A DNA stretch of 64,000 nt. Origin: Candidatus Liptonbacteria bacterium. GTDB taxonomy: Bacteria; Patescibacteriota; Minisyncoccia; UBA6257; JACOXY01. The position numbers were made by a program, and so were the translations under genes. Positions within the stretch are counted from its first letter, which is position 1. The number at the start of each line of letters is the position of its first letter. Below the pieces are notes generated by a model that was given only the letters and a program-made list of their open reading frames with translations, was not told the DNA's origin and did no database searches. This document shows, one piece after another, positions 2,259 to 58,015 of the stretch. Where the stretch lies: positions 67,794 through 131,793 of the forward strand of contig JACOXY010000011.1 in NCBI GenBank assembly GCA_016182095.1, in the 5' to 3' direction.

Positions 2259-4523
2259 ATGAACCCCGCGCGCAAAATAACAGTAATAGCCATAACAATT
2301 AGCGCAACCTCCCTCCTATTTTATTTACGCGGGACAATTTACGCGAGTTTTTTAGAACGGATAAAAATCATAAGCCCAGAATTACATTTTAATATCACAA
2401 GAGCCGAAGCTTCCCTCAAAAAAACCGCCAATCTGTTACATTTCCCTTATTGGTTTAGAAAAACAAGGCTTCCGGTATATAACTTATACATAGACGAGAA
2501 AGATATTTATAAAATAAGTAGCATCCTGCCTAACTATGATCCGGAAGCAAAAACAGGAGCGAGTCCGGAAAATTTTGCTTTTATTGATGGTTTTTTTGCC
2601 TCGGGTGATTATCGTGACAAAATTGAAGTGCGATTTCGCGGGCACAGGCCGGTACATTGGGAAAGCGCCAAAAGATCGCTGCTAATTAAATTTCCCAAAG
2701 ACCGACTGTTTGAAAAAATGAGGTCAATCGACCTGATAGCGCCAATAACTAAAGAATATGCCGCGCTGGAAATAGTTAATAACTATAGATTAAAAGAAAT
2801 GGGGCTAGTCCCAACCAATCTATTTTTAGTTTGGTTAAAAATTAATGGTGGGGACGCGGGTATCTACCTAGCAAAAGAAAGGTACTCGGCGGAATGGCTG
2901 GAGAAAAATGGCTTACCGCCTAATAGCGAAGTCTTTTCGCAAACGGGGTTGGATTCGAGCTGGAGCAGAGATATTTATGAACAAAAGGAGTCTTTCGCGG
3001 AATTGGACACCCTGTTTTCGCTCTTAAGAGAAACGGATGATGTTTTTTATAAAAATATAGGCAATATTTTGGATTTAAATAAAATATACAGAGCTATAGC
3101 ATTTAATGTTATCGCCGGGGGAACGCATTCGCAGGGCCAGAATTTAAATTTTCTTTTTAATGGCGCGACCGGGAAGCTGGAGCCGCTCCTCGAAGATACC
3201 GCCATTTTCTACGGGCGGAACAATAAAGAGCCAGTCGAGGTTTATAACGAAATAAACGTATTCTCCAGACGCATATTATCTAATGAAAATTATTATAATG
3301 ACTATAAAAAGGTATTACGCGAAATTTTATCTTCAATTTCTTTAGAAAAAGACCTCGCGCTGTTTGATACTTTGCAAAGCCAAATTATTGTCGAATTATA
3401 TAAGGATCAAGCAAAATATTATCCTGACTTTGTTTTTAAAGAAGTTTTTCAAGAACAAAGAACCAGCATTATTGACAATTACCAAGTCGCGCAAAAATTG
3501 GCGGAGGCAAAAGAATTGCCGGTTTTTAGTGCTGAAGATTTTTCCAAAACAACCGCACAACTTGTTGAAGGCGGCGAATTTTCAAATTTTTTTGATATTT
3601 CAAAAACAGGCGAGGAGTTCATAGCTGCCAATCCGCAGTTCTTTCTCTCTTATTCAACTTCAACTCGCGATCCCATAGGCAACTTAACGCTTAAAACCGG
3701 AACATATGCTTTTAGGAAAAATGTTGTGATTCCGGCAAATTTTAATTTTGTGATAGAACAGGGAACGCACTTATTTTTAGCCAGTGGAGTTTCTATAGTA
3801 TCTTACAGCCCCATAAAAGCAATCGGATCTGCCGAAAAACTAATCATCGTGGAGCGCCTTTACCCCAAAAACGCATGGGGCTCTATCGCGGTTATAAACA
3901 CCAAAGAATCAAGCAGACTTGAGAATATAATAATTAGCGGCGGGTCGTCGTCGGAAGAAATTAATGGCGTAACATTTACAGGAATGCTCGCGGCTCACGG
4001 CGCGCCAATATTCATTGAGAACGCGATATTTTCTCTGGACGCTGACGATGATGCCTTGAACGTTAAACAAACAACCGGGGCAGTAAAAAATTCAAAATTT
4101 TACGATACCGTGGGCGACGCGATTGACCTTGATATGACAAGTAACTTTGTAATAGAAAATAATAAATTTTTTAACATTGGAACCGGACCCGAAGGCGGCG
4201 ACGCTATTGATATTTCTTTCGGAGATCCGTTTATAAACAAAAATATGATAGATAAATGCTCTGATAAGGGCGTGAGTGTCGGCGAAAAGTCTTTTCCTGA
4301 AATTACCGACAATATCATAAAAAAATGCGAAATCGGCATTGCGGTTAAGGACGAATCAAGGGCGCTAATAAAAAATAATTCAGTGTTAAATAACACTACC
4401 GGCATCGCTCTTTACCAAAAAAAATCCATATTCGGCGGCGGAACAGCTATCCTGGAAAACAACATTTTAAGCGGCAACTTAAACGATATCACCCAAGATA
4501 AGCAATCAATGATTGTGAGATAA
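2259..4523 (+). CDS. CotH-family protein with C-terminal right-handed parallel beta-helix repeats
   Basis: N-terminal signal-anchor; CotH-like blocks (VRFRGHRP...KRSLLIKF, LFLVWLKINGGDAGIYLAKERY); C-terminal repeated N/G/I-rich beta-helix turns (NNKFFNIGTG..., NNSVLNNTTGIAL...). Confidence 0.5.
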   Translation: MNPARKITVIAITISATSLLFYLRGTIYASFLERIKIISPELHFNITRAEASLKKTANLLHFPYWFRKTRLPVYNLYIDEKDIYKISSILPNYDPEAKTGASPENFAFIDGFFASGDYRDKIEVRFRGHRPVHWESAKRSLLIKFPKDRLFEKMRSIDLIAPITKEYAALEIVNNYRLKEMGLVPTNLFLVWLKINGGDAGIYLAKERYSAEWLEKNGLPPNSEVFSQTGLDSSWSRDIYEQKESFAELDTLFSLLRETDDVFYKNIGNILDLNKIYRAIAFNVIAGGTHSQGQNLNFLFNGATGKLEPLLEDTAIFYGRNNKEPVEVYNEINVFSRRILSNENYYNDYKKVLREILSSISLEKDLALFDTLQSQIIVELYKDQAKYYPDFVFKEVFQEQRTSIIDNYQVAQKLAEAKELPVFSAEDFSKTTAQLVEGGEFSNFFDISKTGEEFIAANPQFFLSYSTSTRDPIGNLTLKTGTYAFRKNVVIPANFNFVIEQGTHLFLASGVSIVSYSPIKAIGSAEKLIIVERLYPKNAWGSIAVINTKESSRLENIIISGGSSSEEINGVTFTGMLAAHGAPIFIENAIFSLDADDDALNVKQTTGAVKNSKFYDTVGDAIDLDMTSNFVIENNKFFNIGTGPEGGDAIDISFGDPFINKNMIDKCSDKGVSVGEKSFPEITDNIIKKCEIGIAVKDESRALIKNNSVLNNTTGIALYQKKSIFGGGTAILENNILSGNLNDITQDKQSMIVR

Positions 4524-4526
4524 AAT

Positions 4527-5267
4527 ATGAAAAATAACTTTTTAAGATTTGAGTTCAAATATTTGATACCTCGCTTTTTACTTGGAGACTTAAAAGGCGA
4601 CTTGGCAAAATTAAACTTTCAAGAAGATTCTGCCAATAATGCCGATGGTTTCTACCACGTGGCAAGCGTGTATTTTGACACTGTCACGCTCTCTGATTAT
4701 TCCGATAAAATCGGCGGTCTTTTAGCGAGAAAAAAATTGCGGGCAAGAATTTACAAAAAGAATGATGGAGAAGGCAGTGCGCCCGTTTGGTTGGAAATCA
4801 AAGAAAAGTATGATATGATGATCTCAAAAAAAAGAGTGGCTTTAAGCCTTACGGAGTGGCAAGAATTTTTACAGACTCCGCGCTTAGCTCGCCAAAATTT
4901 AAAATCACGCCTTTCAGAAAGCGAGACAAAAAACCTGGAAGAATTTATGTTTTGGATAGACCTGGAAAACAGAAGGCCTTATGTGCTGGTTGAATATAAG
5001 AGAAGCGCTTGGCACTTGTTAAGCGGCAAGGAAAAAATACGAATTACGCTGGATTATGACATTAAGGCGCAAAAGACAAAAAATTTGTTCGCTGATCCAA
5101 CGGCAAACGTTAGCCAAAATAATGCGGTCATAGAAATTAAATTCAGCGAAAAAATGCCGGCACAGATCGGTTCGTTGCTCGCAAAATACAATTTGGAACG
5201 CGTGGCGTACTCAAAATATGCTGAAAGCGTTGACTCAATAAGGAAATTTTATCCGGTGCCGCGTTAA
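4527..5267 (+). CDS. VTC-domain (polyphosphate-polymerase-like, CYTH-related) protein
   Basis: N-terminus RFEFKYLIP...YHVASVYFDT...LRARIYKK...WLEIKEKY matches the VTC domain pattern; immediately follows the CotH gene. Confidence 0.55.
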   Translation: MKNNFLRFEFKYLIPRFLLGDLKGDLAKLNFQEDSANNADGFYHVASVYFDTVTLSDYSDKIGGLLARKKLRARIYKKNDGEGSAPVWLEIKEKYDMMISKKRVALSLTEWQEFLQTPRLARQNLKSRLSESETKNLEEFMFWIDLENRRPYVLVEYKRSAWHLLSGKEKIRITLDYDIKAQKTKNLFADPTANVSQNNAVIEIKFSEKMPAQIGSLLAKYNLERVAYSKYAESVDSIRKFYPVPR

Positions 5268-33363: not shown

Positions 33364-34801
33364 GCACAGAGATTACTTTGTCAATCTCCGCTTTTGTCGT
33401 GTATTTCCCGAGCGTAAACCGTACGCTTTGTTTGGCGCGTTCTTTGGAGTGTCCAAGCGCCTCTATCACATAAGAGGGTGTGAGCGCACGGGCGCGACAA
33501 GCCGACCCCGAAGAAGCCGCGATGCCTGCTAAATCAAGTTTGGTTAGAAAAAATTGGGATTCAATGCCTGGGAGATAGACATTAAGAAAATTGGGGAGCC
33601 GTTGTAACGTTCTGGCCGTTCTATCGCTTCGCTCGTTCAAGCCGTTTTTCGCTATAGCATTTAGAACGCCCAGAACGTCTGCGCCGTTGATTTCCGCATT
33701 CAGATAAATCTTTTTGATGCCCTGCCATAAATTTTCACGCAGTTTGGCGATGCGGACAGATTCCTTTTCGCGATTTTTTTGTGCGAGTTCAACAGCCTTA
33801 GCAAAGCCGACAACGAACGGAACGTTTTCGGTGCCACTGCGCAATCCAAACTCTTGGCCACCACCAGTTATGATGGGGTGTGGGGTATGGAGTATAGGGT
33901 TTAGTTTTTTTTCTGCACTATACCCTAAACCCTGGACCCCAGACCCTTGGCGCGCATATAGCGCGCCAATGCCTTTCGGTCCATAGATTTTGTGAGCCGA
34001 GATTGTCATTAAGTCCACTCCCAATTTCCCCACATCACAATCTAAATACTGCAGAGCCTGTGCCGCATCAGTATGAAACATCGGATATGTAGAAGAAAAA
34101 CTTGTTTCTAAGAAAAGTGTCTCGGAGCCTGAGCGGGCATGGTTGCCGCTTTTAGTGGCAGAGCGAGGGCGAGAGTCAAGCGGGTGAGCGATCGGCTGGG
34201 CGAGCGAAACCCCGTCTTTTCGTGAAACAAGTTTTTCTTCTCTGAACTTCCTGATTATCTCGGCAATTTGCGCAACAGGCTCTACTGTTCCAACCTCATT
34301 ATTCGCATACATAACCGAAACCAAAACAGTACGCTCGTTAAGCGCCGCTTCAAGTTTTTCCAAATTAACAATTCCGCTTTTGTCTACTGGAATATAAACA
34401 ACTTCAACCCCCTCACGTTCCAAATCCCGCGCGGTTTCCAAAACAGATTCATGCTCTATTCCCGAAACCACAATCCTGGGGTGTGGGGTGTGGGGTGTGG
34501 GGTGTGGTTTTTTGTTTCCGCTATACCCCATACCCGATACCCTATACCCTTTGGCAATTCCCCGAATTGCCAAATTATTCGCTTCTGTTGCGGATCCCGT
34601 AAAAATAATTTCATTAAAGTTAGCGCCAATCGCCTTGGCAATTGTTTCCCGCGACTCATCAAGCGCCGACATAGCTGCTTGCCCAAAAGAATGCAGAGAT
34701 CCCGTGTTCCCAAATTTCAATCCAAAATACGGCTCCATTGCTTTCTTCACAACCGGATCAATTGGAGTTGTAGAGGCGTAGTCAAGGTAGATGCGCTTCA
34801 T
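33341..34801 (-). CDS. iscS: cysteine desulfurase (IscS/NifS-like) carrying two in-frame insertions
   Basis: YLDYASTTP; SAHKIYGPKG PLP lysine; C-terminal SSGSAC. The tracked ORF carries an N-terminal extension; the likely start is MKRIYLDYAS at 34801. Confidence 0.8.
   Translation of the reverse strand: MKRIYLDYASTTPIDPVVKKAMEPYFGLKFGNTGSLHSFGQAAMSALDESRETIAKAIGANFNEIIFTGSATEANNLAIRGIAKGYRVSGMGYSGNKKPHPTPHTPHPRIVVSGIEHESVLETARDLEREGVEVVYIPVDKSGIVNLEKLEAALNERTVLVSVMYANNEVGTVEPVAQIAEIIRKFREEKLVSRKDGVSLAQPIAHPLDSRPRSATKSGNHARSGSETLFLETSFSSTYPMFHTDAAQALQYLDCDVGKLGVDLMTISAHKIYGPKGIGALYARQGSGVQGLGYSAEKKLNPILHTPHPIITGGGQEFGLRSGTENVPFVVGFAKAVELAQKNREKESVRIAKLRENLWQGIKKIYLNAEINGADVLGVLNAIAKNGLNERSDRTARTLQRLPNFLNVYLPGIESQFFLTKLDLAGIAASSGSACRARALTPSYVIEALGHSKERAKQSVRFTLGKYTTKAEIDKVISVLDTFQRQ
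33872..33950. repeat. G-rich insertion element #1, in-frame in iscS
   Basis: ggggtgtggggtatggagtatagggtttag...ctataccctaaaccctggaccccagaccc encodes GSGVQGLGYSAEKKLNPILHTPHP between the conserved ALYARQ and IITGGGQE. Confidence 0.6.
34476..34553. repeat. G-rich insertion element #2, in-frame in iscS
   Basis: (ggggtgt)x4 then a T-loop then ataccccatacccgataccctataccc; encodes VSGMGYSGNKKPHPTPHTPHP. Confidence 0.6.
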
Positions 34802-35467: not shown

Positions 35468-35509
35468 AACTCCACGAATTTACGAATCTTGCGTATATAC
35501 GAATTTACA
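35468..35509. repeat. left inverted repeat flanking the GxxExxY gene
   Basis: aactccacgaatttacgaatcttgcgtatatacgaatttaca. Confidence 0.6.
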
Positions 35510-35912
35510 AGTCGTTAACAAGACGCTTGAAACGAACTCCGTCTTTTAAAAAATAAATTATAATTGCTAAATTGAGATTAACACTTTTAAGATAAGATGA
35601 TACTTGGTCTATGTGCACATACCCAAATTTTGACACTACCTTTAATTCTACTATTACTTTGCCATCCACTAAAAAATCAAAGAAATTTTTCCCAACATTC
35701 TCTCCTTGAAAATTTACTGGAGCGTATTTTTCTTTTTCAAATTTAATGCCCTTTGCCACAAGCGATTTAGCATAAGCCCTCTGATATACAACCTCTTTGT
35801 GTCCCCATCTCAATTCATTAAAAACATCATACGCTGAACCTATTATCTCAAAACTCAGTTCCGGATAAAGCAAATCTTGTCTCCGTAATTTTTGATTCGT
35901 ATATTCACCCAT
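35505..35912 (-). CDS. GxxExxY-family (PD-(D/E)XK-like) protein
   Basis: GSAYDVFNELRWGHKEVVYQRA...VIVELKV matches the GxxExxY pattern. Confidence 0.5.
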   Translation of the reverse strand: MGEYTNQKLRRQDLLYPELSFEIIGSAYDVFNELRWGHKEVVYQRAYAKSLVAKGIKFEKEKYAPVNFQGENVGKNFFDFLVDGKVIVELKVVSKFGYVHIDQVSSYLKSVNLNLAIIIYFLKDGVRFKRLVNDL

Positions 35913-35932: not shown

Positions 35933-36410
35933 ACACGTGGCGATCCGCTACCTTGCTCGCGGCGTAACTGTCCGGCTTGGTCTTGACCTCAAAATTATAA
36001 GCGCGTATCATGCCAACCACTTCCTGTATCATAGATTTGGTTGCGCCATTCTCTCCGATATCCGCGTGTATCTCAAAATCAAAATTTACGGCCCCCAGAC
36101 TTTTCAGTTCTCTAAGAACATTCTGCGCCACTTCTATAGACATCAAAACCTCATTTATAATTCTGTCGCGCAGAGTATAAAACTTTTTAATTTCCAGCCG
36201 ACGCCAAAAATAACGTCCACCATTACCTACGCGATGTACCACTACAGCAGTGACAAAGTCGGCGCTGTTGTCGGCCAAACGAAGCGAGTCGGAGCCAATG
36301 ATAACTTTATAAAAAAAATTTTGCTCCTGCGCCATAAAATCAACAATTGCTTTTGCCACTTCTGTAGCATCCAACTTTACCCCGAAAGAAGTGTTAAATA
36401 AGTTTTTCAT
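35931..36410 (-). CDS. YkuK/DUF458-like RNase-H-fold protein
   Basis: VIIGSDSLRL...FVTAVVVHRVGNGGRYFWRR block; the likely start is MKNLFNT. Confidence 0.35.
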   Translation of the reverse strand: MKNLFNTSFGVKLDATEVAKAIVDFMAQEQNFFYKVIIGSDSLRLADNSADFVTAVVVHRVGNGGRYFWRRLEIKKFYTLRDRIINEVLMSIEVAQNVLRELKSLGAVNFDFEIHADIGENGATKSMIQEVVGMIRAYNFEVKTKPDSYAASKVADRHV

Positions 36411-36513
36411 TATCCATAGACTAAAACAAACTGGGCAAATTTGCAACCAATTTGAGAATGAATAAAAAAAGAAGCCCGCCCAAGTTCTGTTTTGCAAAAC
36501 TCGGGCGGGCGAA

Positions 36514-36586
36514 TAGGCCCTGGGGGATTTGAACCACCGTCGGTCGCTTATAAGGCGACTGCTCTAACCAATTGAGCTAAGGGCCC
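36514..36586 (-). tRNA. tRNA with anticodon UAU (Ile2-type)
   Basis: Manual fold: acceptor GGGCCCT/AGGGCCT; D arm GCTC..GAGC; anticodon stem GTCGC/GCGAC with loop CTTATAA; T arm GGTGG-TTCAAAT-CCCCC. Confidence 0.55.
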
Positions 36587-36589
36587 AAA

Positions 36590-36663
36590 TAGCGCCGGCG
36601 GGATTTGAACCCACGGTCTCCGGCTTGAAAGGCCGGTGTCCTAGACCACTAGACGATGGCGCC
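36590..36663 (-). tRNA. tRNA-Glu (UUC)
   Basis: Anticodon stem CCGGC/GCCGG with loop CTTTCAA; T loop TTCAAAT. Confidence 0.7.
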
Positions 36664-36733
36664 GCAAACAGAAAGATGGCAATCGGGCTTGAACCGATGA
36701 CCCCCTGCTTATCCCTCACTTATGCGCTTAAAA
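36664..36733 (-). other. tRNA 3'-half-like fragment (perfect T arm plus acceptor 3' strand, no 5' half)
   Basis: ATCGG-TTCAAGC-CCGAT followed by TGCCATC. Confidence 0.4.
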
Positions 36734-36806
36734 AGCCAGAGGAGGGGCTTGAACCCTCGACCACTCGATTACAAATCGAGTACTCTACCAACTGAGCTAC
36801 TCTGGC
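36734..36806 (-). tRNA. tRNA-Thr (UGU)
   Basis: Acceptor GCCAGAG/CTCTGGC; anticodon stem CTCGA/TCGAG with loop TTTGTAA; T arm GAGGG-TTCAAGC-CCCTC. Confidence 0.7.
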
Positions 36807-36850
36807 ATTAGTGAGGGACTAGGCGCTCTACCGACTGAGCTATGCCAGCA
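36807..36850 (-). other. tRNA 5'-half-like fragment (acceptor plus D arm)
   Basis: GCTGGCA-TA-GCTC-AGTCGGTA-GAGC; its acceptor pairs 6/7 with the 3' fragment at 36664-36733. Confidence 0.4.
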
Positions 36851-36923
36851 TACCCCCGAGAGGATTTGAACCCCTGACTCCGCGGGTAGAAACCGCGAGC
36901 TCTGTCCACTGAGCTACGGGGGC
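36851..36923 (-). tRNA. tRNA-Arg (UCU)
   Basis: Acceptor GCCCCCG; anticodon stem CGCGG/CCGCG with loop TTTCTAC; T arm AGGGG-TTCAAAT-CCTCT. Confidence 0.65.
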
Positions 36924-37093
36924 AGAACCAAAAAAAGAGTGAATGCGGGAGGAGGGATTTGCCCACAACTCTCACTTCGCCGTCGCGAAGTTCGGTCGCG
37001 GGCCCGCCTCGCGATCGCGCGTGCTCGCGCGATAAGCTCCGGCATTCAAATCCCGCCCGCAGGCAAAGAAGTTTGCCTGCTCGGAAAAAGAAA

Positions 37094-37167
37094 TGCGGGA
37101 GGAGGGATTTGAACCCTCAAAATCAGGCTTTTAAGGCCAGCACGTATGCCAATTCCGTCACTCCCGC
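37094..37167 (-). tRNA. type-I tRNA with anticodon UAA (Leu-like), atypical
   Basis: Acceptor GCGGGAG/CTCCCGC; T arm GAGGG-TTCAAAT-CCCTC; anticodon loop CTTAAAA; only a 5-nt variable region and a 3-bp D stem. Confidence 0.45.
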
Positions 37168-37183
37168 AAAGTCACTCGCCCTC

Positions 37184-37460
37184 AGGAGTGTGAGATATGA
37201 ACATAAATCAAATTTAGAAGCCAAAAAATGAGGTGATTTCAAGGCACGACGACGAAATTGTATTCAGAGAATACATTGAGGAGGAGTAACGAAGAAAATC
37301 AGCCATTTTTTGGCTTCCCCTCGGGGGCGGGCGAATTTCCTAAATCTGCCTCGTTCATCGTCGGAGCTGTACTCTTTGAGTACTAATCTCCTCCTCGCGC
37401 CTCACATATTTAGTAAATTCGCTCCGCTAAATTGATTTTGTTCGTATCTCACACTCCTAT
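37184..37460. repeat. inverted-repeat-bounded element of about 275 bp (MITE-like or structured RNA)
   Basis: aggagtgtgagatatgaacataaatcaa (37184-37212) versus the reverse complement of attgattttgttcgtatctcacactcct (37430-37460); interior has several nested complementary blocks. Confidence 0.45.
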
Positions 37461-37728
37461 TTTCAACGAACTTCAATAAACTTCGTTATTATATCATGAA
37501 TTTTCTAAATTGCAAGCCAGGGTTCCTTGGGGCGCGGCCTTTCTTGCTACCTCTTATTTACCATGACATCTTTTATATTTCCTAGCGAAGCCACGCGAAA
37601 ATTTATTTTCGTGATGGCTGAGCGACGGAAATTCAAGAAATGCTGCAGCATTTCTGTTGCTTATTGACTAGCCCGCAGGGATTTTCTATATTAAGTGCAG
37701 AACCTTTCTCCATTATGGGGGGTAAACC

Positions 37729-41359: not shown

Positions 41360-41899
41360 ATGAAGTATGGTGGCAAAAAGACAAAGAAGGTTGCTCGTCC
41401 TGATGTTAATGATTTTTGGTTGATGCAGGCGCTCTTTTATTCTACCAGGGGCACCTGTGATCGCTTGCGCACTGCCTGTCTTATTGTGGATGAACATAAC
41501 CATTTGATAAGCGCGGGCTATAACGGATCTCTGCCGGGCGCCGATCACTGCGATGATGTGGGGCATCTCATGATAGACGGTCACTGCATGCGCACTTTGC
41601 ACGCGGAAGAAAATGCCGTTTTACACAGCACAAAAAGCTTACGCGGCGCCACCGCTTATATGCTTGTAAGTCCTTGCCTGCTCTGCACCAAAAAACTTTT
41701 GAGTGTGGGCATCAAAAAAATTATCTGCGCTGAAGAGTTCAAAAACATACAAGGCAGAGATGTCGGCGCTAAGTTTATAAAAAATTTACTCGCAAAAAAC
41801 AATGTGCCAATTAAGTTTATAAATATAGATTTTACTGAAAAATTAAATCAATTTACACAAATCCTAAAGAGTCCCGGAGGATTCTTAAGATCCAATTAA
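41360..41899 (+). CDS. deoxycytidylate (dCMP) deaminase
   Basis: HAEENAV and PCLLCTKKL zinc-binding CDA motifs. Confidence 0.7.
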   Translation: MKYGGKKTKKVARPDVNDFWLMQALFYSTRGTCDRLRTACLIVDEHNHLISAGYNGSLPGADHCDDVGHLMIDGHCMRTLHAEENAVLHSTKSLRGATAYMLVSPCLLCTKKLLSVGIKKIICAEEFKNIQGRDVGAKFIKNLLAKNNVPIKFINIDFTEKLNQFTQILKSPGGFLRSN

Positions 41900-42026
41900 T
41901 CCCTCACTCAAGAAAGAGTTTGGGTTTCTGTCTGTAAAATAAAATGTTTTTGGTCGAGTAGTATTAAGTTGATAAATAAATTAAAAAATAAGAGAGGGCG
42001 GATAATGCTCTTTCTTGAGTGAGGGA
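41898..42026 (+). promoter_or_regulatory. long-range perfect 20-bp inverted repeat bridging the dCMP-deaminase stop and the ftsK SD/start
   Basis: aatccctcactcaagaaagag (41898-41918) pairs with ctctttcttgagtgagggat (42007-42026); the right arm overlaps GAGG and the ATG. Confidence 0.45.
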
Positions 42027-44158
42027 TGGGGCGCAAGAAAAAACATGAAGAAGAAAACGAGGAAGGGGGCCTGTTAAACATGGAAATCGGGCATTTTTTT
42101 GAACTTCACCCAGACGCCAAAAAAAGCGTGGTAGCGGTGCTTTTCGCAGCCATAGCGATTATTTTAATTTTATCCAGCCTAGGCAAGGCCGGACCGGCAG
42201 GAAATGCCATCTTCCAAAGCTTAAGTTATCTCTTTGGGTGGGGATACTACTTGGCTCCCGTGACGATGTTCCTCGCGGCGTTTATATTTCTAATAACCAA
42301 GAGGCAAAGAGTCTTGGGCATTACAATCTTCGGATCGTTTCTGCTTTTTCTCTCAAGCTTGGGCATTATTGATATAGTTTCCCCAAAAAGCGGCGGCCTT
42401 TTGGGTTCCATAATTGGAATTATTGAGGCTCCATTCGGTTATATGGCGGCGCTCGTTCTAACTGGAGCATTTTTTATCGCTTCCCTTATCGCAACCCTGA
42501 ATACTCCCATAAAAATAAAAAACCCTTTCGCTCGCGGCAATGTCTCTTCCGAGGATGAAGTACTAACTCCCGAAGAAGAGGAGAATATTGAAGCCCACGA
42601 AAAAGACGACGCGGAGTCAGAAGAGGATGGAGAGGAAGCAGAAGATGAAGAAGAGGAGGCGCGGGCAGATGAAGAGAATGCAAAACAAGGGCGCGGATTA
42701 TTCGGCAGAAGAAAAAAATCGGGGCTCGCGGCAATAAGCGGAGATTATACGCCCCCACCGCTTTCACTCCTTAAAACTTCTACCGAAAAACCGACTTCTG
42801 GAGATTTAAGAGCGAACGCCAATATTATTAAAAGAACATTGGAGTCGTTCGGCATTGCCGTTGAGATGGGAGAAATAAATGTTGGGCCAAAAGTAACTCG
42901 CTATACGCTAAAGCCTGCCGAAGGAGTAAAGATCTCAAAAATAAACGCCTTAAATCAAGATTTGGCGTTAGCGCTCGCGGCTCACCCCATAAGAATAGAA
43001 GCCCCCATCCCTGGAAAATCTTTGGTTGGCATTGAAGTGCCCAACAAAGCCGCGGCCGTAGTGCGACTTGGAAGTCTCATGAACTATAAAGAGTTTAGCG
43101 ATGGCGGCATGCTTGATTTTGTTTTGGGAAGAGATGTGACAGGAAATCCAGTTTTCTCTGATATTGCCAAAATGCCGCATTTATTAGTGGCTGGCGCAAC
43201 CGGTTCGGGGAAGTCGGTTATGCTGCATACTTTGATTTTGTGTCTGCTTTATAAAAATTCTCCCGAAACTTTGCGCATGATAATGATTGACCCGAAGAGA
43301 GTGGAGCTTTCTGTGTACAACGGCATGCCGCACCTAATAGCTCCGGTCGTGACAGACGGGAAAAAAACCGTTGCGGTTTTTCGATGGACTATAAGCGAAA
43401 TGGAAAGGCGCTATGGACTTCTTGAGGCCGCCGGGAGCCGCGACATCAAAAGCTTTAATGTGCAGAATAAAAAGGAGGCCTTGCCATATATTGTAATAAT
43501 TATTGATGAGCTGGCAGACCTTATGGCAGCCTATGGCAGAGAAATTGAGGGGTCAATCGTGCGCATTGCCCAAATGGCGCGCGCAACAGGAATTCATCTT
43601 ATAGTGGCAACCCAACGTCCGTCAGTCGAAGTAATAACCGGGTTAATTAAGGCAAACATAACCACCAGAATAGCACTCCAAGTCGCAAGCCAAGTTGACT
43701 CCAGAACCATTCTTGACTCCGCGGGAGCCGAAAAACTTTTAGGAGGCGGCGATTTGCTTTTTATATCTGCCGAGTTTTCAAAACCAAAAAGAATCCAGGG
43801 CGCCTACGTGAGCGAAGACGAAATCAGAATTGTTGCGAATTTTATAAGAGAGAAAAATAGCGACCTGAAAAATGACGAGGAAATTGAATTCGCTAATCAA
43901 TCCACACACGAAATAGGAAACGACAAAGATGTATTTGACGAGTTCTCCGAAGATGGCAACGAAGAAGACTTGATGTATGGAGACGCGGTAGAAGTTGTGA
44001 GAGAGGCGGGCAAGGCTTCCGCCTCGCTCTTACAGCGCCGCCTTAAAGTCGGCTACGCCAGGGCCGCCCGCCTGCTTGATATTATGGAGGCGCGAGGTAT
44101 CATAGGACCGGGGGACGGAGCGAAACCACGCGAGGTATATTTAAACGAAGAAGTGTAG
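42026..44158 (+). CDS. ftsK: DNA translocase FtsK/SpoIIIE
   Basis: 4 N-terminal TM helices; acidic linker; Walker A GATGSGKS; C-terminal gamma wHTH. Confidence 0.85.
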   Translation: MGRKKKHEEENEEGGLLNMEIGHFFELHPDAKKSVVAVLFAAIAIILILSSLGKAGPAGNAIFQSLSYLFGWGYYLAPVTMFLAAFIFLITKRQRVLGITIFGSFLLFLSSLGIIDIVSPKSGGLLGSIIGIIEAPFGYMAALVLTGAFFIASLIATLNTPIKIKNPFARGNVSSEDEVLTPEEEENIEAHEKDDAESEEDGEEAEDEEEEARADEENAKQGRGLFGRRKKSGLAAISGDYTPPPLSLLKTSTEKPTSGDLRANANIIKRTLESFGIAVEMGEINVGPKVTRYTLKPAEGVKISKINALNQDLALALAAHPIRIEAPIPGKSLVGIEVPNKAAAVVRLGSLMNYKEFSDGGMLDFVLGRDVTGNPVFSDIAKMPHLLVAGATGSGKSVMLHTLILCLLYKNSPETLRMIMIDPKRVELSVYNGMPHLIAPVVTDGKKTVAVFRWTISEMERRYGLLEAAGSRDIKSFNVQNKKEALPYIVIIIDELADLMAAYGREIEGSIVRIAQMARATGIHLIVATQRPSVEVITGLIKANITTRIALQVASQVDSRTILDSAGAEKLLGGGDLLFISAEFSKPKRIQGAYVSEDEIRIVANFIREKNSDLKNDEEIEFANQSTHEIGNDKDVFDEFSEDGNEEDLMYGDAVEVVREAGKASASLLQRRLKVGYARAARLLDIMEARGIIGPGDGAKPREVYLNEEV

Positions 44159-57576: not shown

Positions 57577-58015
57577 GGAAAAGGCAAGCTAGAGGAAGCC
57601 GCCTCGCTTCGCTCGGCGGCCATTTCGTATTGAATTTTGGGGGCAAAAACGAATTGGCGGTTTCGTTTGGGGGACGGAAAAATTTTTAATCAATTTTAGT
57701 TCAACAAAACTATGCGTTATGTAATCTATGCTCGCAAATCAACGGAAGATGACGACAGGCAAGTGCTTTCGATTGAAGCTCAACTCGTTGAGCTTTCTGA
57801 ATTTGCCGCCAAAGAAAAACTTGAAATTGTCGCCTCTTTTCAAGAGGCAAAAACTGCAAAAGAACCCGAAGAAAAACATCGGCGCGAACCATATTTTGCG
57901 AAACCGCCAATTCGTTTTTGCCCCCAAAATTCAATACGAAATGGCCGCCGAGCGAAGCGAGGCGGCTTCGAAATGGCCGCCGAGCGAAGCGAGGCGGCTT
58001 CCTCTAGCTTGCGTT
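57577..58015. mobile_element. second TIR-bounded remnant holding a truncated serine-recombinase N-terminus
   Basis: TIRs gaggaagccgcctcgcttcgctcggcggccatttcgtattgaattttgggggcaaaaacgaattggcggtttcg with its reverse complement at 57903-58015 (32-bp tandem duplication on the right). The internal ORF opens MRYVIYARKSTEDDDRQVLSIEAQ (resolvase-like) and is cut after about 55 aa. Confidence 0.45.

Follow-up and report, generated by a model that had tools for sequence, protein, structure and literature searches.

A tRNA-Thr gene nested within the halves of a broken tRNA-Thr gene in a Liptonbacteria genome, a probable relic of tRNA cassette insertion, and analogous loci in related Patescibacteria and metagenomes

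In a 64,000-nt stretch of the genome of a Candidatus Liptonbacteria bacterium (GenBank:JACOXY010000011.1, positions 67,794 to 131,793; hereafter the window, whose own numbering is used throughout), an intact tRNA-Thr(UGU) gene bounded by a short inverted repeat lies between the two halves of another tRNA gene, the whole being read on the minus strand. This locus is probably the relic of a tRNA-Thr cassette insertion, that is, of a tRNA gene replacement in situ. We propose that a cassette of about 107 bp entered the anticodon arm of a resident Liptonbacteria tRNA-Thr gene, with the loss of positions ~30–35 of the old gene; within an inverted repeat of 9–10 bp (arms of the ATCCCTCACT type), this cassette carries a complete tRNA-Thr(UGU), preceded by a leader of 3 nt and followed by a trailer of 13 nt. 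The inner tRNA would have taken over the function, presumably being freed by the ordinary 5′ and 3′ tRNA-processing enzymes from a precursor in which the paired repeat arms would make a helix at the base of this tRNA, and the outer halves would remain as a pseudogene still co-transcribed in the tRNA operon. We infer that the cassette represents a past or present mobile, non-autonomous DNA unit, with the anticodon arm of its cognate tRNA gene as the target; the tRNA that it brings would let the cell survive the disruption of an essential single-copy gene.

Read on the minus strand, the locus runs from tRNA-Arg through the outer 5′ fragment, TCCCTCACT, tRNA-Thr(UGU), AGTGAGGGA and the outer 3′ fragment to tRNA-Glu. 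The outer 5′ fragment (36849–36819) starts after a gap of 1 nt from the end of tRNA-Arg and comprises an acceptor strand (GCTGGCA, 36849–36843) followed by TA, a D arm (GCTC, 36840–36837; loop AGTCGGTA, 36836–36829; GAGC, 36828–36825) and a terminal GCCTAG (36824–36819), which corresponds to G26 and the opening bases of the anticodon stem (CCT followed by AG). Next are the left arm TCCCTCACT (36818–36810), an AT-rich 3-nt leader, AAT (36809–36807), of a kind also seen at analogous loci, and the inner tRNA-Thr (36806–36734, anticodon tgt), which was detected by ARAGORN and by Rfam (RF00005). A 13-nt trailer, TTTTAAGCGCATA (36733–36721), separates it from the right arm AGTGAGGGA (36720–36712), which is followed by the outer 3′ fragment (36711–36674), containing TAA (resembling T36-A37-A38), the stem strand GCAGG, the variable loop GGGTC, a T arm (ATCGG-TTCAAGC-CCGAT, 36698–36682), an acceptor strand (TGCCATC, 36681–36675) and a discriminator T (36674). 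A first-pass annotation, made by a model from the letters alone, had described a tRNA-Thr nested between complementary tRNA pieces and a 9-bp inverted repeat, and every element that it listed was recovered in place on the minus strand; its count of six pairs out of seven between the outer acceptor strands was also confirmed, the mismatch being C2/T71 (C2/U71 in RNA).

The arms match over 9 bp, and at the tenth position G36819 stands opposite T36711, which in RNA would be a G-U pair; the minimum-free-energy fold contains an uninterrupted 10-bp arm helix. The unit bounded by the arms is ~107–109 bp long and has no open reading frame (ORF). The inner tRNA-Thr had the best Rfam tRNA score in the window (71.7 bits versus a gathering threshold of 29, with model positions 1–71 covered) and possesses a full cloverleaf and a discriminator U, with CCA not encoded; it is predicted to be the functional gene of the locus. 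The arm 9-mer occurs four times in the 64 kb versus 0.2 expected, none of 100 shuffles reaching four, and the T-arm motif GGTTCRANNCC occurs eight times in the window versus 0.85 expected, an orphan copy at 36685–36695 being among them. An assembly artefact was excluded because three independent Logan assemblies were 100% identical over the covered parts of the region, two over 814 nt that take in the entire cluster and one over 467 nt, starting at the inner tRNA-Thr. An exact look-up of the flanking protein returned only 100%-identical contigs, with no variation.

No tRNA finder called the outer gene. ARAGORN reported only the Arg and Thr genes, whether introns of up to 300 nt were permitted or the threshold was lowered, and its transfer-messenger RNA (tmRNA) mode gave no match at the locus. 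An Rfam search of 36400–37300 at E ≤ 10 revealed no outer tRNA and no intron family, the matches being five intact tRNAs and overlapping ones at chance level (YrlA, 23.7 bits versus a threshold of 69). The lowered ARAGORN threshold accepted 592 of 975 in-silico junctions, that is, nearly any, and so did not discriminate between them. In a strict cloverleaf check, the two outer fragments were joined in silico at all end-point combinations; none of these 558 junctions gave a 5-bp anticodon stem with a 7-nt loop, U33 and R37. Compared with its closest relatives, the outer gene lacks ~6 nt (positions ~30–35) and hence an anticodon, and at acceptor position 2:71 a C2/U71 mismatch replaces the C-G pair that the tRNA-Thr genes closest to it have. 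Because no finder calls it, none of the junctions is canonical and this identity pair is broken, the outer gene appears to be a disrupted pseudogene; it cannot give a canonical tRNA. A disrupted pseudogene, one of the alternatives offered in the first-pass annotation, is thereby supported, and the core of that annotation, a tRNA gene split by a tRNA-Thr-bearing insertion, holds: the orphan pieces are complementary, non-overlapping parts of one gene (positions 1–31 and 36–73), and a complete tRNA and the repeat arms lie between them.

Another alternative of that annotation, an intron-like arrangement in which the insert with its tRNA-Thr is excised and the outer exons are ligated to a second functional tRNA, did not hold. 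It is true that the insert lies in the anticodon arm, the place of tRNA introns, and that at two analogous loci (L026 and L036, see below) it follows position 37 exactly. Against this, ARAGORN in intron mode and Rfam were negative, none of the 558 junctions restored a canonical anticodon arm, the anticodon and ~6 nt of the stem-loop are missing, and the arms form an uninterrupted 9- to 10-bp helix with neither bulge-helix-bulge geometry (a 4-bp helix between two 3-nt bulges) nor in-register 3-nt bulges. A group I intron would need more than the 107 nt of the insert, which matched no intron family at E ≤ 10, and removal of the insert in the Val family of analogous loci would leave a 9-nt loop. 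An intron is therefore the most improbable of the explanations considered. Among ten ORFs scanned in the 64-kb window, none resembles the tRNA-splicing endonuclease EndA. The intron-mode search, which had been suggested with the first-pass annotation, found no split gene (only Arg and Thr), a result in favour of the split pseudogene and against the intron. A split or permuted tRNA, or a two-piece tmRNA, was also rejected, the halves being in normal order on one strand without an anticodon and the tmRNA mode of ARAGORN being empty. Group I introns occupy the anticodon loops of bacterial tRNA genes, such as cyanobacterial tRNA-Leu(UAA), and usually measure at least 200 nt; the present insert shares this location, but it is too short, has no group I fold or Rfam match, and its exons cannot form a tRNA. 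The disrupted tRNA genes of archaea, namely those with bulge-helix-bulge introns at canonical or non-canonical positions and the split and permuted tRNAs of Nanoarchaeum and Caldivirga (PMC4033280, PMC3218864), resemble the locus in having the break in or near the anticodon loop and a helix beside the break that joins the halves. Here, unlike there, the host is bacterial, no bulge-helix-bulge is formed, the exons have no anticodon, no splice product is possible and the insert holds a complete isoacceptor tRNA.

To which tRNA the outer gene had belonged was judged by comparing its halves with 263 distinct tRNAs. The best match was tRNA-Thr(tgt) of L004 (L numbers designate individual loci), in the closest available genome (flanking protein 85% identical), and the second was tRNA-Ala(tgc) of L111, by a small margin (37 vs 39 for the best Thr). 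The third match was tRNA-Thr(cgt) of L213 (GCTGGCG...GAGCGCCTGCCTCGTAAGCAGGAGGTC...CGCCAGC-T), with which the outer gene has the anticodon stem CCTGC/GCAGG in common; the outer 5′ fragment is identical to it at 26 of 29 positions, and AAGCAGG and the following GGTC are exact matches, the variable loop being GGGTC vs AGGTC in L213. The outer discriminator U73 is common to every Thr tRNA in the sample. These similarities point to a former tRNA-Thr. Relative to L004 tRNA-Thr(tgt), compensatory changes were observed at pairs 3:70 and 7:66, and the outer gene would therefore have evolved as a functional tRNA before breakage. The inner tRNA-Thr seems to be of a different lineage from the outer one, matching it at 20 of 29 positions in the 5′ half and 23 of 38 in the 3′ half, with different acceptor stems. 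For annotation, the locus has one tRNA-Thr(UGU), and its flanks are to be labelled a tRNA-Thr pseudogene.

Similar nesting was found in relatives, in a sample that was fetched via the flanking protein, without regard to nesting, and comprised 80 loci from GTDB species representatives as well as several Logan contigs. Six tRNAs in it had flanking repeats of at least 8 bp, and five of these were nested inside fragments of a like tRNA, namely the window tRNA-Thr, the tRNA-Val(tac) of L026, L035 and L069, and the tRNA-Leu(taa) of L090; the sixth had a weak AT-rich 8-mer. In L069, the tRNA-Val(tac), with arms GCCCTTTC/GAAAGGGC, stands in place of the anticodon loop of a Val-like gene; in L026, a 16-bp repeat directly follows TTTACA of the outer tRNA-Val(tac); and in L035, a tRNA-Val lies inside a tRNA-Val inside a third 5′ half. 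Further nested cases are L004, L036, L067 and the window tRNA-Pro. L036 and L067 show 5′ relics, and in L090 and L004 a tRNA with a UAA anticodon is inside the D loop of an older tRNA-Leu(UAA). The second nested case of the window begins with a tRNA-Pro-like 5′ fragment (58255–58173, minus strand; CTGGCTG-TA-GTAT-AGTGGTAG, hairpin insert, ATGCC-CTG), which contains an extra 30-nt hairpin insert and breaks off behind the second base of the anticodon; next come CCCCATTAGTAAT, TAT and an intact tRNA-Pro(UGG), the whole locus occupying 58255–58099 (minus strand), and no Pro 3′ fragment was found downstream of the Pro-Arg tRNA pair. Directly downstream of this pair are two tandem copies of a 33-nt unit, GAAGCCGCCTCGCTTCGCTCGGCGGCCATTTC (57945–58010, minus strand).

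A metagenome scan with a pattern of two D arms 15–45 nt apart, which was blind to repeat and tRNA identity, yielded at least 120 loci without taxonomic assignment. Among the 120 loci listed, 57 consisted of an uncalled 5′ fragment and an intact tRNA, the latter being a Val, Ile, Met, Thr, Lys, Arg, Phe, Asn or Pro tRNA. Twenty-seven non-redundant cases with both outer halves found, among the metagenome matches listed, could be scored; the best match of the outer gene to tRNAs of other loci had the amino-acid identity of the inner tRNA in 19 of them versus 3.3 expected, and in 15 of the 16 in which the outer acceptor pairing was 7/7. The outer anticodon bases (TAC, GAC or CAC) could be read in seven Val cases, and in each of them they agreed with the inner anticodon. 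Insertion at the analogous loci is in the anticodon arm and rarely in the D loop. In L110, on an unrelated contig, a tRNA-Thr(ggt) flanked by ATCCCTCACTTT/AAAGTGGGGGA is inside a Thr-like outer gene, and the arm 9-mer is the same as TCCCTCACT of the window. The double nesting in L035 and L153 suggests that a former inner gene can itself be invaded. Outer genes range from pristine in L198, where all stems are perfect and only the loop is interrupted, to ruined, the T loop being mutated in L151, the 3′ half lost in L135 and L067 and the 5′ acceptor strand lost in L090, as would be expected of pseudogenes of different ages. Extra TCCCG...CGGGA hairpins were present in L026 and L036, and the same kind in L135. 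Taken together, like-in-like nesting is recurrent in related Patescibacteria and metagenomes, with dozens of analogous loci; a full-text literature search found no description of nested like-in-like tRNA genes in bacteria. It was also noticed that contigs named Ga0224501_*/Ga0224511_* (L103, L106, L114, L125, L145, L146, L154 and L173), from one metagenome pair, carry tandem arrays of tRNA 5′ fragments, up to at least eight fragment matches per contig with a spacing of ~70 nt.

Comparison of L151 with L198 bears on mobility. Their cassettes, consisting of arms, leader, tRNA-Val(tac) and trailer, are 94% identical, and the outer genes are 75% and 62% identical, with the differences in the acceptor and anticodon stems compensated; both share the junction TT(T)A|TTCA-CCCCGTTAGATTT...AAATCTAACGGGG-CAAG|C. 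This fits one cassette having inserted independently into two resident tRNA-Val genes, and fits common descent with neutral decay less well. It also bears on local duplication and decay, according to which a tRNA-Thr would have been triplicated in tandem, copy 1 losing its 3′ half and copy 3 its 5′ half, with the repeat incidental. Inner and outer genes that are near-identical in the D, anticodon and T arms (L141, L144, L162, L187 and L216), and the tRNA fragments and chimeras common at the locus in relatives, would be expected from such a process, but it does not account for near-identical cassettes in different outer genes. In the window, moreover, inner and outer genes differ at 9 of 29 (5′) and 15 of 38 (3′) positions, the outer halves find their pairing partners in each other and not in the inner tRNA, and the arms, which adjoin the fragments without a gap, are of a conserved family shared with L110 and with an element at 41899–42027. 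Duplication therefore seems a rather improbable origin of the locus.

The element at 41899–42027 is a tRNA-free sister of the cassette, with perfect 20-bp arms, ATCCCTCACTCAAGAAAGAG (41899–41918) and CTCTTTCTTGAGTGAGGGAT (42008–42027), and an 89-nt AT-rich interior, a length also found in the tRNA-Thr element; the terminal 10-mer of the two elements is the same. It makes up the whole of the intergenic space from the stop codon of a dCMP-deaminase-like gene to the ftsK start codon, ATG. The first-pass annotation had noticed the recurrence of the ATCCCTCACT motif in front of ftsK, and correctly so, but what it took for a simple 20-bp hairpin is a 20-bp inverted repeat with arms 89 nt apart. Two main arm families were distinguished, ATCCCTCAC... 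and A[TC]CCCGTTAGAA...; arms of the ATCCCTCAC type occur in L019, L034, L041 and L110, and those of the AYCCCGTTAGAA type in more than 12 loci. In many Patescibacteria these families also bound tRNA-free elements of ~130 bp (L019, 1624–1754; L034, 5483–5610; L035, 6045–6166; L041, 8125–8258; L062, 5487–5607; L089, 4840–4965), with perfect arms of 10–21 bp, of which the first 6–12 nt are conserved across species, and interiors of ~85–95 nt. They often extend exactly from a stop codon to the next start codon, the right arm ending in ...GGGATG(AA), and may be mobile elements, uptake-sequence-like motifs or intercistronic RNA structures. The window unit resembles miniature inverted-repeat transposable elements (MITEs) in its terminal inverted repeats, its small size, its lack of an ORF and its related copies in the same and related genomes, and differs in having no target-site duplication. 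Small palindromic MITE-like repeats of bacteria (Rickettsia palindromic elements, Neisseria Correia elements, REPINs and IS200/IS605-derived palindrome-associated elements) enter genes, including RNA genes, and are likewise non-coding and ~100–130 bp long, with terminal inverted repeats, many copies and intergenic relatives. To our knowledge, they have no tRNA cargo or preference for a cognate tRNA gene; furthermore, unlike in those repeats, only the first 6–12 nt of the arms are conserved here, across species at ~60–70% protein identity, and target duplication is not seen.

Several observations weigh against the insertion of a mobile cassette. No presence/absence polymorphism of the window cassette was found, the closest genomes (85% and 74–75% flanking-protein identity) carrying a different tRNA array, and no target-site duplication is present, ~6 nt of the target being missing instead between the flanks CCTAG and TAAGC. 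There is neither a clean excision product nor an associated recombinase, the junctions vary between arm families, the metagenome loci lack taxonomic assignment, and the scan pattern is limited to tRNA types with a TAGCTCAG D arm. The assignment of the outer gene to tRNA-Thr rests on similarity within a limited tRNA sample in which tRNA-Ala is a close second. Finally, in L069, L110 and L200 the repeat replaces outer positions 27–43 exactly, coaxial with the remaining tRNA body, which could reflect a functional composite RNA. With regard to the wider searches, a metagenome scan with the outer 5′ half GCYGGCRTAGCTCAGTCGGTAGAGCGCCT gave no matches, and a viral scan with a 30-mer of the inner anticodon arm also gave none, with no sign of a phage origin; no second site or empty allele for the window cassette was found in these two scans. 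Elements of the CCCGTTAGAA type were found in only six viral contigs. No recombinase or nuclease recurred consistently beside the 57 listed metagenome cassettes, a GIY-YIG-like ORF and a helix-turn-helix-containing ORF each being present in three of the 57 loci. Four readings of the junctions, namely Cre/lox-like, serine recombinase (2-bp CA crossover), IS200/IS605-like (TTCA target, CAAG end) and integron attC-like (GTTAGAY/RTCTAAC), each fitted some junctions and not all, and were rejected.

If a composite RNA were made, the outer body would be kept on purpose, with a long helix for an anticodon arm and the inner tRNA at its tip, and it might be a handle by which the inner tRNA is processed or stabilized, or else a tRNA-like RNA that lacks an anticodon. 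The exact replacement of positions 27–43 by a helix in several independent loci, stacking on the remainder of the anticodon stem, agrees with this, as do the 12-bp continuous helix of L069, the replacement on both sides in L110 and L200, the left junction GAGC-AG|TCCC shared by L135 and L184, and the many outer genes with 7/7 acceptor pairing and intact T arms. The repeat of the window gains a G-U pair on the sense strand, and imperfect arm positions were G-U in 10 cases versus A-C in five; this bias, however, is not significant. Outer genes are also found at every stage of decay (L067, L135, L090, L026, L036 and L151), and in the window the 2:71 pair is broken and the outer acceptor stem is not formed in the minimum-free-energy fold. 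A composite RNA is thus considered unlikely, and the insertion of a cassette into a gene that then decayed is preferred.

Bacterial integrative elements of the P4 type and archaeal ones of the SSV/pNOB8 type target tRNA genes and carry a replacement for the displaced part (the tRNA fragments that such events leave are reviewed in PMC9897764), and a model for the disruption of a tRNA-Thr in Caldiarchaeum has been given (PMC3293823). The locus is similar in that a tRNA gene is the target, the incoming DNA keeps the tRNA function, orphan fragments remain and the anticodon arm is a preferred sublocation. The window locus might be the remnant of a classical integration, att-site debris of a deleted genomic island or prophage, and such debris seems to exist in the same operon, where, at the Leu locus 150 nt upstream, a 19-nt direct repeat of the tRNA-Leu 3′ end flanks a 131-nt insert, and after tRNAs in L004 and L006. 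However, integrase-mediated events duplicate a tRNA segment and restore the gene at one junction, whereas here the fragments are complementary and non-overlapping and no direct repeat flanks the insert. It is only 107 bp long with palindromic ends, carries a whole tRNA rather than a matching segment and encodes no integrase, nor was one found among the neighbouring ORFs examined; repeated events, in addition, give nesting in the manner of Russian dolls. A very improbable origin of this kind is all that these features would leave. All known systems compared differ from the present one, a complete cognate tRNA in ~110 bp together with nesting being found only here, and the sequences suggest a recurrent and apparently undescribed mode of tRNA gene replacement in bacteria of the candidate phyla radiation (CPR).

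By extension from the window, it is possible, although we put this forward tentatively and as somewhat short of probable, that Patescibacteria harbor an undescribed class of tiny, non-autonomous, palindrome-bounded cassettes with a complete tRNA gene each, which are specific in their insertion for the resident tRNA gene of matching anticodon, entering its anticodon arm and so killing and replacing it in one event. The tRNA genes of reduced genomes are presumably single-copy and essential, so that an insertion should be lethal, and a cassette bringing its own tRNA would avoid lethality. If so, the cassette would be a self-complementing, addictive gene-replacement element, whose repeated self-invasion would lead to Russian-doll loci, and the levels of nesting would make a natural clock with one invasion event per level. 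It would also represent a new route of horizontal tRNA gene turnover, distinct from integrase-borne islands and archaeal introns, and would explain why tRNA halves that mislead annotation are so abundant at CPR tRNA loci; the chimeras, orphan halves and "missing" tRNAs of genome bins may likewise be left over from cassette replacement. Target choice might be read from the tRNA sequence itself, and if targeting is sequence-directed to the cognate anticodon arm, the responsible enzyme would be an interesting site-specific DNA insertion system.

The nested locus belongs to a predicted transcription unit on the minus strand (36474–37515), extending from a promoter-like site (37515–37488) through tRNA-Leu(UAA) (37167–37094), tRNA-Arg(UCU) (36923–36851), the nested tRNA-Thr, tRNA-Glu(UUC) (36663–36590) and tRNA-Ile(UAU) (36586–36514) to an intrinsic terminator (36510–36474). 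Co-transcription in this Leu-Arg-[Thr]-Glu-Ile operon is likely because the spacers on both sides of the nested locus are 1–10 nt long and there is a single terminator. The ORFs adjoining the locus encode RNase H-like (YkuK), PD-(D/E)XK and cysteine desulfurase proteins, and the neighboring genes of the window are bacterial (FtsK, ClpB, cysteine desulfurase). An NCBI protein recorded from Candidatus Liptonbacteria is 100% identical to the YkuK protein. Synteny of a PMM-like hydrolase gene, the tRNA cluster, the YkuK-like gene, an RNase H fold gene and ClpB is kept in relatives, and the tRNA content of the orthologous locus is very fluid among them. In the window (35505–35912, minus strand) and in L088 (5534–5941), the YkuK-like and RNase H fold genes are separated by a small PD-(D/E)XK_3 nuclease gene, which is missing at this position in L004 and L006; this is an insertion/deletion polymorphism, beside a tRNA hot spot, of a gene that is possibly selfish.

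Examination of the other tRNA genes of the operon revealed further peculiarities. The 19-nt direct repeat of the tRNA-Leu 3′ end, AAATCCCTCCTCCCGCATT, is at 37110–37092 and 36960–36942 (minus strand), and the GC-rich 131-nt insert that it flanks begins with an antisense copy of a T arm, GGGATTTGAA (37053–37044, minus strand). The same architecture of direct repeat and insert follows tRNA-Ile2(CAT) in L006 (4862–5070) and tRNA-Lys in L004 (3866–4030), and a similar insert follows tRNA-Leu(tag) in L036 (downstream of 4723); these tRNA-end repeats with inserts have the appearance of att-type debris, or of tRNA-associated mini-elements of a second kind. The tRNA-Leu(UAA) itself (37094–37167, minus strand) is only 74 nt long, with a variable region of 4–5 nt, whereas a long class II variable arm is normal for bacterial tRNA-Leu. 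The short form is conserved in L088 (2968–3043), of a 75%-identity relative, where the anticodon stem is fully paired, as against one mismatch in the window; L004 has a similar short tRNA-Leu(UAG) (4513–4585), and L006 and L090 have normal versions of 81–85 nt. The tRNA-Ile(UAU) of the window is, by position and sequence (acceptor GGGCCCT), the homologue of a tRNA with a CAT anticodon in L006 (4810–4885), a relative with 74% identity in the flanking protein. The latter is probably a lysidine-dependent Ile2, which suggests a C34-to-U34 switch in AUA decoding; tRNA-Ile(UAU) is common among the fetched Patescibacteria loci. In relatives, the orthologous locus resembles a graveyard of tRNA remnants: L088 has a 34-nt mini-remnant of tRNA-Arg(UCU) (3053–3087), in L090 only the first 10 nt of the tRNA-Arg(UCU) remain, the rest having given way to two perfect hairpins, which start with TCCCGAC and TTCCGAC (2320–2396), and L004 contains a chimeric pseudo-tRNA with an Ile 3′ end (4095–4175).

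The cysteine desulfurase (class-V aminotransferase) ORF of the window contains an 18-bp perfect inverted repeat, AGAAGAAAAACTTGTTTC, with arms 115 nt apart (34091–34241), which is conserved in the 85%-identity relative (L004, 7802–7952). Because the Pfam match of the protein is broken into three stretches, the ORF is suggested to carry an in-frame palindromic insert.

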